A stretch of DNA of 64,000 nt from Eledone cirrhosa (lineage: Eukaryota), in the NCBI GenBank assembly GCA_964016885.1, contig OZ024763.1:3410001-3474000 (forward strand), in the 5' to 3' direction. This document shows positions 2,951-64,000 of this stretch, piece by piece (positions within the stretch are counted from its first letter, which is position 1; the number at the start of each line of letters is the position of its first letter). Both the position numbers and the translations under genes were made by a program. The notes beneath the pieces are model-generated. The model saw only the letters and a list, made by a program, of their open reading frames with translations. It had not been told where the DNA came from and searched no databases.

Positions 2951-3040
2951 TCCTCGACTACGTAGTTTCGTGGCATAAACAAAAACAATACATCATAAAG
3001 ATATAGAGTCCTTGCGAGGTCTGCCGACTTATCAAGAGGA
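2951..3040 (-). ncRNA. HHR motif with U3-A8 core and long loop II
   Basis: Minus strand: TCCTC-TTGATAA-GTCGGCA...TGCCAC-GAAAC-TACGTA-GTC-GAGGA. Confidence 0.7.
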
Positions 3041-3152: not shown

Positions 3153-3193
<41 letters not shown>

Positions 3194-3270
3194 CGAAGGA
3201 AATGTGGTAAGGAACCAGATGGACCATAACGCACCAAAGTACTCAATACTTAGGAACAATAACATAAACA

Positions 3271-7319: not shown

Positions 7320-7980
7320 CAAATAACGAAACCAAATTAAATTTCGTTTCGTTTGTAACTCACTTTTGTATGACTGACGCTTAAACAATTAAGTTAAAAA
7401 TGTACATCCACATATGTATACTGAAATACTAGTATGCATATGAATACACACACGTGTACATATGTAGATGTACCGAGTTTTCACTGGTCACTTTACTGTG
7501 AGTGTCCAGCTATTCTGTATGTAAACACACAGACAAACCGGTTTTTAGAGTCATACTGGTTTTTGAGGAAACACCTTTCCTCTATTCTCCAGAAAGCCAG
7601 ACAAGGAATATTGGACTAGTTTCGATGTTGTTACATCTCATCAGCAATATTTACCTATCTTCCGGCCTCTCTAGAGAATCGTGAAAGCACATATCGCTAT
7701 ATGCTTTTTCCATGAAAATTAGTAGTGGGCAGACCAATTTGCATAGAGCGTGAGTACGTACCGGTTCAACGGAGACGATAAAAACAAATAACGAAACGAA
7801 ATTAAATTTCGTTTCGTTTGTAACTCACTTTTGTATGACTGACGCTTAAACAATTAAGTTAAAAATGTACATCCACATATGTATACTGAAATACTAGTAT
7901 GCATATGAATACACACACGTGTACATATGTAGATGTACCGAGTTTTCACTGGTCACTTTACTGTGAGTGTCCAGCTATTC
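7313..7980 (-). mobile_element. Retrozyme-like partial tandem (465-bp unit, ~1.4 copies)
   Basis: Direct repeats 7313-7515 and 7778-7980 (one mismatch seen), offset 465, with an HHR between them and (TA)n on both sides. Terminal stub at 14432-14555. Confidence 0.85.
7607..7651 (-). ncRNA. Intact minimal type I hammerhead ribozyme motif
   Basis: Minus strand AATATTG-CTGATGA-GATGT(AACA)ACATC-GAAAC-TA-GTC-CAATATT: perfect 7-bp stem I, 5-bp stem II, full core, GUC triplet. Confidence 0.92.
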
Positions 7981-8383: not shown

Positions 8384-9394
8384 TATGGCAAACGACTTGG
8401 AGTGGTTGATCAGTTTGTCTACCTGGGAAGCACTGTCAATCGATACGGCAACCTTGACAGTGAAATCTCACTTAGGATTAGGAAAGCAAGTGATGCTTTC
8501 GGAAAGCTAGAAAGGCGACTCTGGGGTCGGCGAGACATATGCAGGAGGACAAAGGTAAGGGTGTACAGGGCATGTGTACTCTCTTGTCTTCTTTATGCCT
8601 GCGAGACCTGGGTCACATATCGACGCCACCTTAGGCAATTGGAGCGTTTCCATCAGATGTGTCTCAGACGGATACATGGCGTTCGCTGGAGGGACCACAT
8701 CAGTGATGTCGAGATTTTGGAAAGCTCTATGTGTGACAGTATAGAAGCTCTTGTGCTTAAGCAGCGACTCCGTTGGAGTGGTCACCTTGCCAGGATGAAG
8801 GATTCTAGAATACCAAAACAACTCTTCTATGGAGAGTTGGTTAAAGGAAAACGACCGCCACATAAACCAAAAAAGAGGTATAAGGATTCCTTGAAGGCCT
8901 CTCTGAAAGACGCTAACATCTCTGCTGATACATGGGAAAATATTGCTGCTGATCGTAATAAATGGAGAAAGACTGTATATGAGGGAAAAGTTGCCTTTGA
9001 GGCATCTCGAATCGCACACGAGAAAGTAAAGCGGGACGTGAGGAAGGGTATTGCTGTTGCACTTCCAGACGGCGAGGGTCCTCCTATGTTTCTGACATGC
9101 AGCGTCTGTGCGAGACTCTGCCTAAGCAAAGCTGGACTCGAAAGTCATCTTCGCAGTCATAAAGTAAGACCAGTGGTTGACTACCAGGCTGCTGTTGGAG
9201 ATGCTACTCATCATGCTTGCCAAACATGTGGTAGAGAATGTAAATCAGCAGGAGGACTCAAGCGACATGCAAAAGTACACGAACTCCAACCACAGCCGAC
9301 TATTCCCAGTAAATGTTTTGGTTGCCGACTCTGTGCAAGACATTTTAGATCATTGGCTGGGCTAAAAAGCCACATTCGATCGCAGCACTGTTAG
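8384..9394 (+). mobile_element. 5'-truncated RTE-clade LINE ORF (RT C-terminus/thumb plus three C2H2 zinc fingers)
   Basis: [25 protein letters not shown] and [11 protein letters not shown] motifs; three CxxC-x12-HxxxH/HxxxxH fingers; no internal stop. Probable 3' terminus at ~9821-9862 (GGCCATACTCGATAACGAG..GCAGCCATCAT). Confidence 0.93.
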
Positions 9395-10929: not shown

Positions 10930-11122
10930 TATTTTTATTTTATAGAAGGAGCTTCTACAGGACTAGTACTGTTTCATTCAGATGTGCTTCCTGAAGATAT
11001 CATCTGAATGAAACAGTACTAGTCTTGTAGAAGCTCCTTCTTTAAAATAAAAAAATTTTACTCTGCCATGTATTGAGTACCTTACTTACTGTGGTTATCC
11101 CCGACTCAACCCGGGACCTACG
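10930..11122. mobile_element. Foldback with one-sided tail in (TA)n
   Basis: Arms ~10930-10984 and 11001-11055 (AGAAGGAGCTTCTACA..GTTTCATTCAGATG and its complement), tail to ~11122. Contains CTGAAGA and GAAAC but stems are poor. Confidence 0.7.
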
Positions 11123-14041: not shown

Positions 14042-14436
<395 letters not shown>

Positions 14437-18823: not shown

Positions 18824-18869
18824 AATGTGGTTCAATGGCAGGTTAATAAATTAACGAGCCAGAACATAT

Positions 18870-19001
18870 ATAATCAAGGTTTAGCAAATAAGAAAAAGTT
18901 TCAAAATAAATTTCAAAAAATTCACTTTACTAACCATAGTAAGTACAGTGAATTTTTAGAAATTTATTTTGAAACTTTTTCTTATTTGCTAAACCTTGAT
19001 T
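18870..19001. repeat. Short foldback
   Basis: Arms ~18870-18926 and 18947-19001. Single-arm relatives at 38450-38511 and 54843-54905. Confidence 0.75.
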
Positions 19002-19036
19002 ATATATCGATATATATATATATCTATATATATATA

Positions 19037-20125: not shown

Positions 20126-20173
<48 letters not shown>

Positions 20174-20954
20174 AAAAAGTATGACCCCGACGGCAGAGCT
20201 CAAGCCGTTTCGACGGCTATTTCTGGACTAAATTAGAATTTCTAGCCTGGTGAATAAATAGCCGAACTTTTCAAGGGGTACTTCCTTATATGGGAAGATT
20301 GTAGTTGTCAAGAGGATTGGTTAAAATTTGTTGTAAACACAAATAAGTCTAGCATGGCATTTGGTGGAAGGTAGGGGTGGCTGAACTTGCCCGTAGGACA
20401 ATAGGGGAGTGAGTGGAGCGGTCAAGTGTTGAAAGTGATATGTAAACAGCAGATTCTAAGGCTAGTGTATGAAGTGGAGGAGGGAGGTTATAGAATAGGT
20501 AAATCGAATGAGAGTAGGAGACAATAAAAGATAATAGAAAGAAAAAAATATATATATAAAATTAGATAGTGAGAAATGAATAAAAAAATCACAATGCTAT
20601 CTTACAATTACAGGTTAATAAGTTGAGAATAGAAAAAACTTGTAGAAATTGAGTAGTACCAGAAGTGATACAGAATTAAAGGGGTTTAACACGTCTGCTA
20701 TAAGTAGTTAGTAAAACGTATTCGGCCAATTCTATCTTAAAATTACAGGGGTGGGGGAACTGATGCTACAGAGGCCCGATGGGCTGCATCGAGGTAGGCG
20801 AAGGGCAAAGCAGACGAAGAAGAAAATAGGGGGTGGAAAGAAACAGGGTGAAGAAGAAGACAAAGAGGAAAAAAAAAGAAAAGAGATACATCTACCTAAG
20901 TAAGCTGGGGTTTCCCCTAACTTATTCGGCAAGTAGGGGGGTATCAGCCCTTGT

Positions 20955-21236
20955 CTACCCACCCGAGTCGTTATGGGGTTTGAGGGCGAGGTAAGTCCTA
21001 CGCAATCTGTGTTTGCATGCGGTTACCAGTTCCTCTTTCTTGTTTAGGAGTTGGTCCTTCGAAAACAACATTTGTTATGTTTCCTCCGAGCATAAGTTAC
21101 ACGGACGGCGTCCTGCCGTGTAAGATTTAGCTTTGGACAGTAAGCTGCAAGTGAGATTGTAGGTTATATTGTTATCTTGGAGGTCCCAGATGTGGCCCGA
21201 AAGTGTAGTGGCATGTCGCTGGACCGGGTTTCGGAA
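20955..21236 (-). pseudogene. C-terminal part of a PLE GIY-YIG endonuclease (Naiad-like CxLC motif)
   Basis: Manual translation: FRNPVQRHATTLSGHIWDLQDNNITYNLTCSLLSKAKSYTAGRRPCNLCSEET*QMLFSKDQLLNKKEELVTACKHRLRRTYLALKPHNDSGG*. One internal TAA; not in the ORF track. Confidence 0.82.
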
Positions 21237-21317
21237 ATGCCATGATAGACTTATTTGTGTTTACAACAAATTTTAACCAATCCCCTTGACAACTACAATC
21301 TTCCCATATAAGGAAGT

Positions 21318-21414
21318 ACCCCTTGAAAAGTTCGGCTATTTATTCACCAGGCTAAAAATTATAATTTAGTCCAGAAATAGCCGTCGAAACGGCTTGAGCT
21401 CTGCCGTCGGGGGT
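21318..21414 (+). ncRNA. HHR motif, U3-A8 core, full stem III (mirror 20184-20279, minus)
   Basis: CCCC-TTGAAAA-GTTCGGCTATTT...AAATAGCCGTC-GAAACGGC(TTGAGCTCT)GCCGTC-GGGG. Confidence 0.8.
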
Positions 21415-21526
21415 CATACTTTTCCCTATTTCCCACTCTACTACCCTAAATATTGAGTACTCTGGTGCGTTATGGTCCATCTGGTTCCTTACCACAATTC
21501 CTTTGTTATATATATATCTATATATA

Positions 21527-21594
<68 letters not shown>

Positions 21595-21639
21595 TATACA
21601 TATATTTATATATATACATAAATATACACACACATATAT

Positions 21640-21724
<85 letters not shown>

Positions 21725-21816
21725 TATATACACATATATATGATATATATACATATATATATATATACATACATATACATATATATAGATATATATATGT
21801 ATATATATGAATATAC

Positions 21817-21864
<48 letters not shown>

Positions 21865-21914
21865 ATATATATATATATGTACACACACACATATATATAT
21901 GTATATATATATAC

Positions 21915-21952
<38 letters not shown>

Positions 21953-21964
21953 ATATATATATAC

Positions 21965-22039
<75 letters not shown>

Positions 22040-22041
22040 CA

Positions 22042-22157
<116 letters not shown>

Positions 22158-27650: not shown

Positions 27651-27785
27651 GTACCTACATATGTGTGTATATATATATGTGTGTGTGTGTATATATATAT
27701 GTGTGTATATATATATGTATATATATGTATATATATGCATATACATGTATATATACATATTATATATATATATATATATATATAT

Positions 27786-28327
<542 letters not shown>

Positions 28328-30892: not shown

Positions 30893-31276
30893 CCAGGGAG
30901 TGTAACTTGGAGTTACTGTAGGTTCACCCGGGTGAGCACTTGATGTTTAGGTTCACTTCAGTGTCGAGGTGTAGAGCTATACAGAGTGTATTATAGTTAA
31001 ATAAGATAACAAGGACGATTGGTTACTCCTTCATTACGTTGGTGACGCGCGATTCGCCACTGACCTGCTCAAGGTTCAATCTGTATCGATCTGACCTGAC
31101 TCTGTAATCCGTGGTTCATCAGACCCCTTGTAATGTTAAGGGGTCTGACGAGTCACGGATTACAGAGTCAGGTCAGATCGATACAGATCGAACCTTGAGC
31201 AGGCCAGTGGCGAATCGCGCGTCACCAACGTAATGAAGGAGTAACCAATCGTCCTTGTTATCTTATTTAACTATAT
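30893..31276. mobile_element. Foldback with HHR (31142-31226 +) and left-side tail
   Basis: Arms ~30992-31129 and 31138-31275. GGT-CTGACGA-GTCAC...GTGGC-GAATC-GCGC-GTC-ACC; GAAT replaces GAAA in both arms. Confidence 0.8.
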
Positions 31277-33905: not shown

Positions 33906-33913
<8 letters not shown>

Positions 33914-34169
33914 ATACTTTGGGAGGGTCATGTTGCCAATAAGAAACACACGCACCAGTTGCTTTCACTTCAATTTATTATATATTTATAAATTTATAAA
34001 TTTACAAACTTATATTTATAAATATTTATATTTATAAATATATAATAAATTGAAGTGAAAGCAACTGGTGCGTGTGTTTCTTATTGGCAACATGACCCTC
34101 CCAAAGTATAACAATATCGGTTTCAACACACGATTTCAGATAAAGAATCTTGCTAAACAAATTCAGAAA

Positions 34170-34727: not shown

Positions 34728-34729
<2 letters not shown>

Positions 34730-35360
34730 CGAAGGAAATGTGGTAAGGAACCAGGTGGACCATAACGCACCAAAGTACTCAATACTTGGGGTAGTAGAGT
34801 GGGTAATAGGAACCAGTAAGACCCCGACGGCTGAGCTCAAGCCGTTTCGACGGCTAATTCTGGACTAAATGAAAATTTATCCTGGTAATTAAATAGCCGA
34901 TCTTCTCAAGGGGTAATTCCATATATGGTCAAAGTGATTGTCAAAAGTCAGTAGTAGTTCTGTGATTGCAAATTAGTAGGGGAGATAGTGGCTAAACCTG
35001 CCAGTAGGAGAAAGAGGGGAGAGGGTGGAGTAGATCCAATCAAGCGTTGGTAGTGCCAGCTACAGCTGGGCATGAGGTCAAAGAAGATATTGACCTCATG
35101 CCCAGCTGCAGCTGGCACTACCAACGCTTGATTGGATCTACTCCACCCCCTCCCCTCTTTCTCCTACTGGCAGGTTTAGCCACTATCTCCCCTACTAATT
35201 TGCAATCACAGAATTACTACTGACTTTTGACAATCACTTTGACCATATATGGAATTACCCCTTGAGAAGATCGGCTATTTAAATACCAGGATAAATTTTC
35301 ATTTAGTCCAGAATTAGCCGTCGAAACGGCTTGAGCTCAGCCGTCGGGGTCTTACTGGTT

Positions 35361-35363
<3 letters not shown>
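34728..35363. mobile_element. Family B foldback with U3-A8 HHRs (34821-34914 minus, 35257-35350 plus)
   Basis: Tail 34728-34807, arms ~34808-35081 and 35090-35363. ACCCC-TTGAGAA-GATCGGCTA...TAGCCGTC-GAAACGGC(TTGAGCTCA)GCCGTC-GGGGT. Confidence 0.88.
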
Positions 35364-35399
<36 letters not shown>

Positions 35400-40159: not shown

Positions 40160-40519
40160 TTTTGATGTATTAAAGGATTCTTTGTTTTACTCTCTTAATT
40201 TTTTGGCTCTGTTTAACTGCATTGAGCTATACCTTTTACTGTCATTTCTATAATACGAAGAGGGTGTTTGACTCAAACACGCTCCGGTATTCTAATCCTT
40301 ATATACACATACATACATTACATACAAATACGTACACATACATATATACACATACATATATACACATACATACATACATATACATATATATATATACAGA
40401 TACACACACACATACGTACACGCATACAAATACGCACATACAGAGACAATTTCTTGTCAACCCACCCGTATATATACATATATATATATATATTCATAGA
40501 GTAATGCGATATTACAATT

Positions 40520-44066: not shown

Positions 44067-44992
44067 TAGTAGGTGTATTGCCAATTGCTAGTAGGTGTAT
44101 TGCCAATTGCTAGTAGGTGTATTGCCAATTGCTAGTAGGTGTATTGCCAATTGCTAGTAGGTGTATTGCCAATTGCTAATAGGTGTATTGCCAATTGCTA
44201 GTAGGTGTATTGCCAATTGCTAATAGGTGTATTGCCAATTGCTAGTAGGTATATTACCAATTGCTAGCACATGTATTGCAATTGCTAGTAGGTGTATTGA
44301 CAATTGCTAGTAGATGTATTGCCAATTACTAGTAGGTGTATTGCCAATTGCTAGTAGGTGTATTGCCAATTGCTAGTAGGTTTATTGCCAATTGCTAGTA
44401 GGTGTATTGCCAATTGGTAGTAGGTGTATTGCCAATTGCTAGTAGGTGTATTGCCAATTGCTAGTAGGTGTATTGCCAATTGCTAGTAGGTGTATTGCCA
44501 ATTGCTAGTAGGTGTATTGCCAATTGCTAGTAGGTGTATTGCCAATTGCTAGTAGGTGTATTGCCAATTGCTAATAGGTGTATTGCCAATTGCTAGTAGG
44601 TATATTACCAATTGCTAGCACATGTATTGCCAATTACTAGTAGGTGTATTGCCAATTGCTAGTAGGTGTATTGCCAATTGCTAATAGGTGTATTGCCAAT
44701 TGCTAGTAGGTATATTACCAATTGCTAGCACATGTATTGCAATTGCTAGTAGGTGTATTGACAATTGCTAGTAGGTGTATTGACAATTGCTAGTAGGTGT
44801 ATTGCCAATTGCTAGTAGGTTTATTGCCAATTGCTAGTAGGTGTATTGCCAATTGCTAGTAGGTGTATTGTCAATTGCTAGTAGGTGTATTGCCAATTGC
44901 TAGTACACGTATTGCCAATTGCTAGTAGGTGTATTGCTAATTACTAGTAGGTGTATTGCCAATTGCTAGTACATGTATTGCCAATTGCTAGT
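44067..44992. repeat. 22-bp minisatellite TAGTAGGTGTATTGCCAATTGC
   Basis: About 42 units; a reverse-complement array of about 6 units lies at 46900-47032. Confidence 0.95.
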
Positions 44993-45129
44993 GGTGGTTT
45001 TTTTTTTATCAAATGCTTCTTTACCTTATTTAGCAATCTTGGTCTCTGTGTTTTCTGGGACTCTGAATTTTTCTCAAATATTCCTTCTCTGACAACCTCC
45101 AGTCCATTTTATTCCTTTCTCCTTTATTC

Positions 45130-46450: not shown

Positions 46451-47191
46451 GTTCTTGGTCCTCTTTCTTCTTTGGCAATTGTTGGATGTCTTAGTTTCTA
46501 TAGCTATTTATATATATATATACACACACACATATACATACATACAATATAAATGCATATATATATATATACACACACACACTCATATATATATATATAT
46601 ATATAAATATATATATACAATATATATATACATACAATATACATTCATACATATACATACATTCATATATATACATATCTATACCAGCGTTAAAGATCGA
46701 TCAAGTATATACAGGGGAGGTGAATTGGTGGGGAGGAGTGGGGGGGGGGGGATTTGGTCAATTTAGTTGTAGTGATTAGTTTAACACTTTGTGGTCTAAA
46801 ATGGTCAGAAAATAAGATTTGTGTCCAAGCAGGTCATATTTACAGCTTACAATAATTATAAAGTGATTATAGCAAAATAAACTTTGAAATCTATGTCTAA
46901 ATACACCTACTAGAAATTGGCAATACACCTACTAGCAATTGGCAATACACCTACTAGCAATTGGCAATACACCGACTAGCAATTGGCAATACACCTACTA
47001 GCAATTGGCAATACACCGACTAGCAATTGGCAGTGATATGAGGAGAAAAAGGTATGACATGACAAAAGAATTTTCTGTGAAGGTTAACATAATATATTAT
47101 AGTATTGTTATTAAATATCAAACAAGATATAAAACAAACTGACCCTCGTCTACACACACACACACACACACTCACACACACACACACACAT

Positions 47192-47975: not shown

Positions 47976-48175
47976 GCATGTGTGTGTATATATATATATA
48001 TAGTAGTAATAATAAATTTGAAGACTAAAATCCAAAGAGCGTTCGATAGGGATAAACATATATCAAATATATAATAACCCTAAAGCAAATATTTATTAAA
48101 ATAACAGATTAAAGTTTAAGCAAAGAATCGCTGCTTTCACCAGCAATTCTTTGCTTAAACTTTAATCTGTTATTT

Positions 48176-48279
<104 letters not shown>

Positions 48280-50830: not shown

Positions 50831-51235
50831 ATATAAAGAAGAAATTAAAAGATGGTTAAAAAAGTTCCATATATTTTATTATGCGCATTTCGAAAACAAC
50901 ATCATCCTGGGACAAAAATTGTGTTCTCATCAGATAAAATAAGGTAACATGATATGAGGCCTAAAAACACTTGTGAACAAGAAAGTGTTCAGTCAACATA
51001 TGTTCACAAGTGTTTTTAGGCCTCATATCATGTTACCTTATTTTATCTGATGAGAACACAATTTTTGTCCCAGGATGATGTTGTTTTCGAAATGCGCATA
51101 ATAAAATATATGGAACTTTTTTAACCATCTTTTAATTTCTTCTTTATATATACTCCAGTTCTACCAACTGTTGAGTGCTACTTATCTGATATATGCCTGG
51201 TTTTATTGTTCTACAATATTACTCACCTCCTACAT
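50831..51235. mobile_element. Foldback with HHR in each arm (51039-51108 +; 50873-50942 minus) and tail
   Basis: Perfect arms ~50831-50979 and 51001-51150. TATTTTAT-CTGATGA-GAAC..TTTC-GAAAT-GCGC-ATA-ATAAAATA. Confidence 0.88.
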
Positions 51236-54264: not shown

Positions 54265-54361
54265 AGACATATTACAATCGTTTCTCTGGCGACCAGCTCG
54301 AGGCACGATAGATGCAATGATCAAACCTGACTCTGAAATCGCAAGATCCTCGGATATGTCT
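54265..54361 (-). ncRNA. HHR motif (C at core position 4) with conserved loop II insert
   Basis: Minus strand AGACATAT-CCGAGGA-TCTTGCGA...TCGCCAGA-GAAAC-GATT-GTA-ATATGTCT: 8-bp stem I. Adjacent hairpin at 54354-54423. Confidence 0.75.
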
Positions 54362-54900
54362 CGATTCTACGAAGCAGAGTTTCCAAAATTTTGCAAACTC
54401 TGCTTAGTAGAATCGAGACATATATATGTATGTATATATATAGTAATAATAAATGTGAAGACTAAAATCCAAAGAGGGTTCGATAAGGATTATATATATA
54501 TCAAATATCAAGCGTTAACCTAATATATACCTTCCATATATACTGTACCGATTGTGTTGTTATTTCTGTTTACCTTTTACATATATATATATTTATATAT
54601 ATATATATGTAAAAGGTATATGCTTTTGCCTTTGCACACGGTACCATGACAAAACTGCTTTATCATCCATTTGCTCTCATTCTGAGGCAGTTTGGAATGG
54701 CGCCAGTTTGTAATTTTTAACTCGAGAATTTTATATTCTCCGAGAGAGAAATGCGTTCCGACGATAATCTCCTTCTCAATGGAAATCCGCCTAGATTATC
54801 TATTCGTTTGGGATTTGAAAGAAACCGCGGTAAGGGCACATATAGTAAGCACAGTGAATTTTTGAATTTTTTAAATTTTTTCGGTATTTACATTCCCTTG

Positions 54901-60352: not shown

Positions 60353-60447
60353 GGCTCTGTTTCACTACATTGAGCTATACCTTTTACTGTCATTTCTATA
60401 ATACGAAGAGGGTGTTTAACTCCAACACACTCCAGTATTTTAACCCT

Positions 60448-62464: not shown

Positions 62465-62775
62465 GGAGGTGAGTTTTATTGTAGTACAATAAAGCAATGC
62501 AGATATCGGATAAGAAGCACTCTGCAGTTTGTAGGACTGGAGTATACATAATATATAAGAACAAAAGATGGTTAAAGGAGTTCCATGTATTTTATTATGC
62601 GCATTTCAAAATCATGTTGATTTAAAACTGCACTATTCACAAGTGTTTTTTAACCTTCATATCATGTCTTCCTATTTTATCTGATGAAAACACAAATGTT
62701 ATTGCATGATGATATTTGTTTTTGAAATGCGCATAATAAAATACATGGAACTCTTTTAACCATCTTTTGATCTTA
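62465..62775. mobile_element. Asymmetric foldback of the 50831 family with HHR at 62673-62743 +
   Basis: Tail and short arm on the left (to ~62610), longer arm ~62636-62770 carrying TATTTTAT-CTGATGA..GAAATGCGCATA-ATAAAATA. Confidence 0.8.
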
Positions 62776-62780
62776 TATAT

Positions 62781-62839
<59 letters not shown>

Positions 62840-63488: not shown

Positions 63489-64000
<512 letters not shown>

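Follow-up and report, generated by a model that had tools for sequence, protein, structure and literature searches.

A dead copy of a putative Hydra-clade Penelope-like element joined head-to-head to its inverted 3' end in Eledone cirrhosa

The window analysed here is a stretch of 64,000 nucleotides of the Eledone cirrhosa genome (contig OZ024763.1). Between two TA-rich tracts it carries the end of an endonuclease (EN) frame of a Penelope-like element (PLE), followed on the minus strand by a 3' untranslated region (UTR) and a hammerhead ribozyme (HHR). The terminal segment is repeated in inverted orientation, and only this second arm carries a tail (Table 1). The arms form an inverted repeat (20169-20362 versus 21235-21429, 97% identity) and are 5 substitutions and 1 indel apart. 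Among the rows listed, 5 of these 6 differences are private to one arm; they therefore date the insertion but do not separate models of its formation. The family is represented in the window by this locus (20169-21507) and by copies at 34728-35365, 14120-14258 and 3180-3254.

Table 1. Features of the insertion and its flanks (positions in the window)
Feature	Position	Strand	Basis
(TA)n target, left	20130-20168		sequence
Tailless 3' terminal arm (pLTR end)	20169-20362	-	97% identical inverted copy; end point; fold
Type I hammerhead, sense to EN	20172-20286	-	core scan and fold; predicted cleavage after C 20189
680-nt 3' UTR	20275-20954	-	sequence; tiled by other copies in runs X1 and X8
EN end, last 93 codons, putative Hydra-clade GIY-YIG (CxxC, E, N, CxH)	20955-21236	-	frame, homologues, reads
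Head-to-head joint with 2-nt microhomology; EN arm truncated 5' at this point	21235-21236		sequence; loose ends in X5, X6, X8
Inverted 5'-truncated 3'-end copy with second hammerhead	21235-21429	+	similarity, scan, fold
77-nt tail, sole to this arm	21430-21506	+	sequence; foldback comparison
Conserved bulged hairpin, RCTC/inner stem/2-nt bulge/GAGY plus ACT	21435-21461	+	pattern, pairing
(TA)n-rich target, right	21507-22155		sequence

The peptide quoted in the original prediction is real and lies in a single minus-strand frame of 93 residues (21236-20955). This frame includes an internal TAA at residue 54 (21077-21075) and ends with a TAG (20957-20955). The TAA given as the stop of the fragment is thus present but internal, the ORF itself ending in TAG. 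The residues C46 and C49 (CxxC), E52, N65, C74 and H76 (CxH) can be identified. The assignment to a GIY-YIG domain with CxxC is correct as far as the CxxC and the end of the domain are concerned, but only the distal half remains and the GIY and YIG motifs are absent.

Similarity to PLE proteins had also been proposed, and most long homologues indeed combine a reverse transcriptase (RT) with a C-terminal GIY-YIG EN. A total of 1764 proteins match the fragment at E<=1e-3 (phmmer, 1.84 billion representatives; best 5.5e-22) and, judged by these alignments, the match is not a chance one. Identity to the best matches is modest (about 35-50%). CxxCxxE is found in all of the best 150 phmmer matches and N..CxH also in 145 of them. 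A set of long homologues was obtained by an alignment search (50 matches at E<=1e-10 among 8000 candidates scored). In all 50 the match ends within 40 aa of the C-terminus; 47 carry the YRDD motif of the RT upstream of it, and 47 have a CxC..C linker. RW[KR] is present in 21 and DK[TS] in all of the 22 near-full-length homologues. A loose regular expression picks up a pair of neighbouring Cys in the 22 aa preceding YIG in 4/41 long homologues; by eye these look like the last Cys of the linker. Relatives from metagenomes exhibit RT then EN in one frame at 4 of 12 loci (L001, L006, L007, L010), while a script detects a C3/G8 hammerhead 3' of the stop at 7 of the 12.

The structure model of the EN of one relative (P0013, pLDDT 91.7) has I-TevI as its best structural match (Z 9.0, rmsd 2.6, 90 aligned residues), followed by T4 EndoII and UvrC. 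Foldseek ranks the same proteins high, none of them at E<=0.001. The fold of this relative's EN, as modelled, is GIY-YIG. Pfam alone gives no family for the EN fragment, nor for P0001, P0155, P0157 and the ORFs of L001 and L007; its GIY-YIG family is found in P0125, weakly in P0108, and in 9 of the 90 members of set A4. Neither a word-indexed protein search nor a PDB sequence search returned a match. P0015 (XP_061775427.1) is a Hydra-type EN protein from the annotation of a 62-Mb contig of the pipefish Nerophis ophidion; the host list for Hydra elements in the part of Craig et al. 2021 at hand (PMC8557442) is without vertebrates.

The element had been described as Naiad-like. However, Naiads have an N-terminal EN that includes a CCHH motif and is linked to the RT by a CxC domain, and they are without canonical HHRs according to the available sections of Craig et al. 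(PMC8557442), whereas the EN is C-terminal here and an HHR lies downstream. According to the legend of Fig. S7 of the same paper, a C-terminal CxxC and CxH may be specific to Hydra. Aligned by eye, the fragment matches the Hydra rows of this figure and not the Penelope, Nematis or Neptune rows or Naiad_Obim. Four Hydra features are found in this copy: a C-terminal EN, CxxC before E together with CxH after N, a sense 3' HHR and insertion into (TA)n. The CxCX5C linker, RWK, DKT and the lack of CCHH are seen in homologues only, the corresponding parts being absent from this copy; the CC half of a CCHH finger would lie outside it and the homologues are without this finger. No RT of the family was found in the 64-kb window, and the 21-nt family motif is absent from the searched collections of genome contigs and viral contigs. 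From its sequence the element is almost certainly a Hydra-clade Penelope-like retrotransposon and a new family within this known clade. The proposal of a PLE GIY-YIG endonuclease end forming one unit with a U3/A8 hammerhead therefore stands.

In the reverse domain order, the fragment would be the N-terminal EN of a Naiad, possibly a selenoprotein, lying beside an unrelated hammerhead repeat. Naiads likewise target (TA)n and give inverted, tailed insertions (PMC8557442, available sections). However, the frame stops 19 codons past CxH and leads into UTR and HHR, an RT DD motif lies downstream of the matching part in none of the 150 representatives, and all 50 long matches are C-terminal. Domain order has already refuted this reading, whose probability is close to nil. 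The selenoprotein lead fares no better: the fragment encodes its Cys by TGT or TGC, and the 93 codons of this copy contain no in-frame TGA, hence no sign of a selenoprotein. A crude SECIS-core pattern has no match in the 680-nt UTR, and the TAA position reads Leu in other copies.

The latter observation comes from aligning to the locus the reads and contigs of 4 out of 10 listed sequencing runs (X1, X5, X6 and X8). They include 204 differences in all, and the statements made here rest on the 40 listed ones. At the TAA site, the letter giving a Leu codon is present in 6056 of 6461 reads and in 232 of 232 X8 reads. At residue 30 (21149-21147), the letter of the conserved Trp is present in 6392 of 7069 reads and in 580 of 580 X8 reads. 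Both defects, the nonsense codon at 21077-21075 and the Trp-to-Cys change at 21149-21147, are private to this copy. An autonomous element had been suggested. This copy has neither RT nor catalytic core and includes a nonsense codon; it is 5'-truncated and dead. Loose ends at 21236 in X5, X6 and X8 indicate that other copies extend further upstream. Read by eye, they run into the K-x-R-x-x-x-H-x-x-x-F stretch that relatives have ahead of the fragment, which makes 21236 a truncation point. Other copies cover 30/30 bins of the locus in X1 and in X8; no listed record spans the locus, and no record outside the window reaches from EN to hammerhead. In X5 and X6 (the related organisms B and C), EN, UTR and hammerhead pieces with at least 85% likeness to positions 20166-21510 are carried by 58 and 27 contigs, respectively. 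Depth steps are not taken as copy numbers since they are confounded by subfamily divergence, and the X8 peak at 21016/21019 falls on a GCATGC restriction site.

A U3-A8 HHR had been located downstream of the EN and in the same orientation, which is confirmed: it lies 680 nt further on the same strand (20274-20189). It has U3 at 20274, A8 at 20269, a 56-nt stem II insert and GAAA at 20211, with a stem III of 5 bp closed by a 9-nt loop and the core U3-U-G-A-A-A8-A. The inverted second hammerhead extends over 21323-21408 on the plus strand (U3 21323, C 21408). Both arms include a complete three-helix HHR of the U3/A8 variant, not the canonical C3/G8, and fold prediction reaches the three-helix form of the minus-strand copy without constraints (z about -2.1). 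Scanning the window for hammerheads yields 13 cores, whereas 20 block shuffles give 0-1. All four window copies (4/4) retain U3 and A8, while position 7 varies among copies (A, G, C). Rfam gives no hammerhead match at E<=10 for 20165-21510; for the whole window, matches to TA-repeat miRNA dominate the best 150 of 523 rows. Cores of the U3-A8 type are known in Schistosoma PLEs, as are pairs of HHRs on opposite strands (Cervera and de la Pena 2014, PMC4209133, in the part at hand). The hammerheads of the 7 relatives found all have a CUGA core (7/7). Within Hydra the U3/A8 variant appears unreported in the source sections available, and the literature searched offered no usable data on U3/A8 hammerhead activity. 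The family would add to Hydra an atypical, long-stem-II U3/A8 hammerhead that is predicted to fold as a monomer.

With its U3/A8 core and long stem II the hammerhead differs from those of the relatives found, as does the 680-nt UTR, and read depth is much higher for terminal copies than for EN copies. These features would fit a non-autonomous hammerhead retrozyme that captured a piece of Hydra EN by recombination, in which case EN and hammerhead would not be native partners. Such a capture is very improbable: contig pieces of other copies, those of organisms B and C included, tile the stop codon, the UTR and the hammerhead, the tail bears a Hydra-type hairpin, and order and polarity are as in Hydra elements.

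The tailless arm ends about 20 nt past the predicted cleavage site, where the extended stem I has its base. In all three foldbacks of the family (3/3), one arm ends at this identical base and the other is tailed. Because both arms run past the cleavage site, the hammerhead would have been uncleaved in the copied templates; because the tail is on the short arm, it cannot derive from the long arm in its present form. We consider it probable that the locus is a dead copy of a Hydra-clade PLE joined head-to-head to its own inverted 3' end inside (TA)n, by an EN double-strand cut and two-ended priming. The priming mechanism taken by itself, argued by analogy, is somewhat favoured. The proteins would be supplied by an autonomous RT-EN master of this family of about 700 aa. 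Its EN would cut both strands of the (TA)n target and its RT would prime from both cut ends. One cDNA would start at 20169, just 5' of the tail hairpin, and extend over 1068 nt into the EN, and the other at 21506, 45 nt 3' of the hairpin, extending over about 270 nt. The truncated cDNA ends would then meet via the 2-nt microhomology at 21235-21236. The hairpin may be the RNA or DNA signal that places both start sites, and the hammerhead may process read-through transcripts. The in vitro mechanism on which this scheme is modelled derives from a Poseidon element, PAc, not from a Hydra element: PAc cuts and extends both target strands, its RT starts at two internal sites bounding the tail, and HHR cleavage is not needed, uncleaved RNA being used (Frangieh et al. 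2024, PMC11167929, in the sections available).

The other two foldbacks, 34728-35365 and 14120-14258, are near-symmetric and fit an intramolecular snap-back equally well, which makes the latter a live rival. Here a single cDNA would fold back and be copied to a hairpin duplex, staggered EN cuts then stripping the tail from one strand. In its favour, the turn of the foldback 14120-14258 falls precisely within hammerhead stem III, and the loop of 34728-35365 is 8 nt long. Many X1 joints point the same way, with both arms ending near the same place of stem II (among 15 of 314 rows listed), and the tail is ascribed to EN-mediated resolution in the available text of Craig et al. 2021 (PMC8557442). 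However, run X8, which consists of raw reads, lends the listed joints no support, and some of them may be artefacts of assembly. Moreover, the RNA-templated long arm is tailless here so that an extra clipping step is required, while the two RT start sites described for PAc account for tails without clipping (PMC11167929, available sections). Snap-back thus appears rather unlikely, and two-ended priming is retained as the preferred reading.

The hairpin to which the start sites are referred is found in relatives 3' of the hammerhead. It consists of RCTC, an inner stem, a 2-nt bulge on the 3' side and GAGY, followed by ACT. The pattern was taken from the counted sequences, some of which are related, so that the following shuffle figures overstate its significance: it occurs within 600 nt of the stop at 7 of 12 metagenome loci against at most 2 in 1000 shuffles, the pairing and covariation score of the instances is equalled in 0/500 shuffles and their number of covarying pairs in 185/500, and the register with the 2-nt bulge has 18 inner Watson-Crick pairs, which 0/10000 shuffles reach. 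The match at L002 proved to be a palindrome artefact and was dropped, leaving 6 loci. Six of the 12 loci are without a true hairpin after the stop; L006 has it in the 5' pLTR only, L008 and L009 end early, L004 has a tailless end and L012 is degenerate. In the 11 instances collected from the window and the 6 loci, 98% of the cells are paired, and changes on both sides of a pair occur, G-C to A-U among them. A partly independent scan of the window gives 13 matches against a shuffle mean of 3.9 and a maximum of 8 (100 shuffles); they include the tail starts of unrelated foldbacks (11060, 51152, 62543).

Among published consensus sequences, Hydra-2_Amil, Hydra-2_Ajap and Hydra-1_Ajap carry the hairpin, Hydra-1_Amil and Hydra-1_Crog show a degenerate form, and none is evident in Hydra-1_Obim (by eye, from the material of PMC8557442 at hand). 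The main text of Craig et al. 2021, in the form available, holds no description of it ('hairpin' 0 and 'stem' 2 occurrences; PMC8557442), nor does the literature searched, whose coverage is thin for subscription papers, older PLE structure papers included. Where units stand in tandem, two hairpins 59-68 nt apart separate the hammerhead from the ATG of the following unit at L005 (601-695), L006 (102-196), L007 (30-111) and L010 (1586-1677). The idea that two hairpins set the tail length was rejected, L001 having one hairpin before the ATG and ending soon after. The tail hairpin is a candidate recognition element for RT/EN. The fuller proposal, in which a dimeric enzyme recognizes the hairpin of Hydra PLEs and primes both cut (TA)n ends, 5' and 3' of it, is tentative.

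A link between the ribozyme islands of the window and a PLE protein had been anticipated. It holds for this family (20169-21507, 34728-35365, 14120-14258, 3180-3254). The hammerheads at 2481/2599, 7644, 50933/51047, 62363, 62681 and 3035 have no DNA similarity to the element, so that a general ribozyme-protein link is not established by homology. Such a general link is already in print, animal retrozymes having been argued to be non-autonomous PLE derivatives (bioRxiv 10.64898/2026.07.22.740005, in the part available). The tail architecture does recur in the other hammerhead foldback families, and the tail hairpin in some of them. Sixteen foldbacks were chosen from the window, leaving out pairs from the tandem array at 44-47 kb and weak rows. 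In ten, one arm directly abuts a microsatellite and the other carries a tail of 40-103 nt. The other six comprise three that are flush on one side without a scored microsatellite on the opposite side, one (50836) with a tail seen by eye only and two that do not fit.

Foldbacks of unrelated families, most with a flush arm and a tail, lie at 2286-2794, 33909-34114, 50836-51144, 62545-62786, 10932-11053, 27785-28109, 30996-31271, 63625-63872, 48096-48178, 54354-54423 and 18866-19007. Canonical C3/G8 hammerheads are located inside those at 2286-2794, 50836-51144 and 62545-62786, and a Hydra-type hairpin is located at the tail start of those beginning at 10932, 50836 and 62545. Hammerhead-like cores outside the family occur on the minus strand at 7644-7614, 62363-62333, 3035-2956 and 51679-51597. 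Those at 3035 and 51679, both with U3, are doubtful cores, and 7591-7662 has an Rfam HH9 match below gathering. Two more repeat families carry a similar bulged hairpin near (TA)n, at 40206-40227 and 60354-60375 (plus strand) and at 40835-40809 and 41485-41459 (minus strand); the one at 60354 is a short piece flanked by two TA runs. An open frame at about 8400-9391 (plus strand) has C2H2 zinc fingers at its end and looks like the C-terminal portion of the ORF of an RTE-type LINE. A 22-nt tandem array occupies about 44067-44996, with an inverted block 2 kb off (46900-47032).

As an insertion the locus is unremarkable, since it is a dead member of a clade already known from 2021, and the Naiad and selenoprotein lead is corrected. 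The covarying tail hairpin is a candidate cis signal behind the PLE tail and the inverted pLTR, the origin of which is still called undefined. It is testable in the existing PLE in vitro system and could provide a clade marker for protein-free foldbacks. If hairpin-guided two-ended priming is correct, it would explain the one-arm tails of the foldbacks, and several unrelated hammerhead foldback families of this genome would look like non-autonomous Hydra passengers.

The comparisons with known systems that follow refer to the sections of the cited papers at hand. Naiads resemble the element in (TA)n targeting, inverted and tailed insertions and a GIY-YIG EN, but differ by an N-terminal EN with CCHH, the absence of canonical HHRs and a different distal EN sequence (PMC8557442). 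The U3-A8 min-HHR of the Schistosoma PLE Cercyon shows the same core covariation and opposite-strand HHR pairs 100-700 bp apart; however, Cercyon HHRs are described among minimal motifs, whereas the present one has a full stem III and a predicted monomer fold (PMC4209133). The PAc Poseidon element of Anolis (Frangieh et al. 2024, PMC11167929) also has two termini bounding the tail, a stem-loop at the RT start region and an HHR that remains uncleaved in the copy inserted. It belongs to another clade and its stem-loop is AC-rich and inside the ORF, in contrast to the GC-closed bulged hairpin located between HHR and next ATG in Hydra relatives. Within the Hydra clade (Hydra-1_Obim, Hydra-2_Amil, Hydra-1_Ajap; PMC8557442), differences concern the 3' end: the stop-to-core distance is 89-337 nt in 7 loci of relatives but the UTR is 680 nt here, tails are described as 30-40 bp against 77 nt, and the Hydra rows of File S2 have a CUGA core in 26/26 cases and short helices, in contrast to U3/A8, the 56-nt stem II and the 5-bp stem III with its 9-nt loop. 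Judged by eye, Hydra-1_Obim is a different family. The element nevertheless shares with this clade the C-terminal GIY-YIG EN in which CxxC precedes E and CxH follows N, the HHR in the 3' UTR, the (TA)n target and the 5' truncation with an inverted copy.
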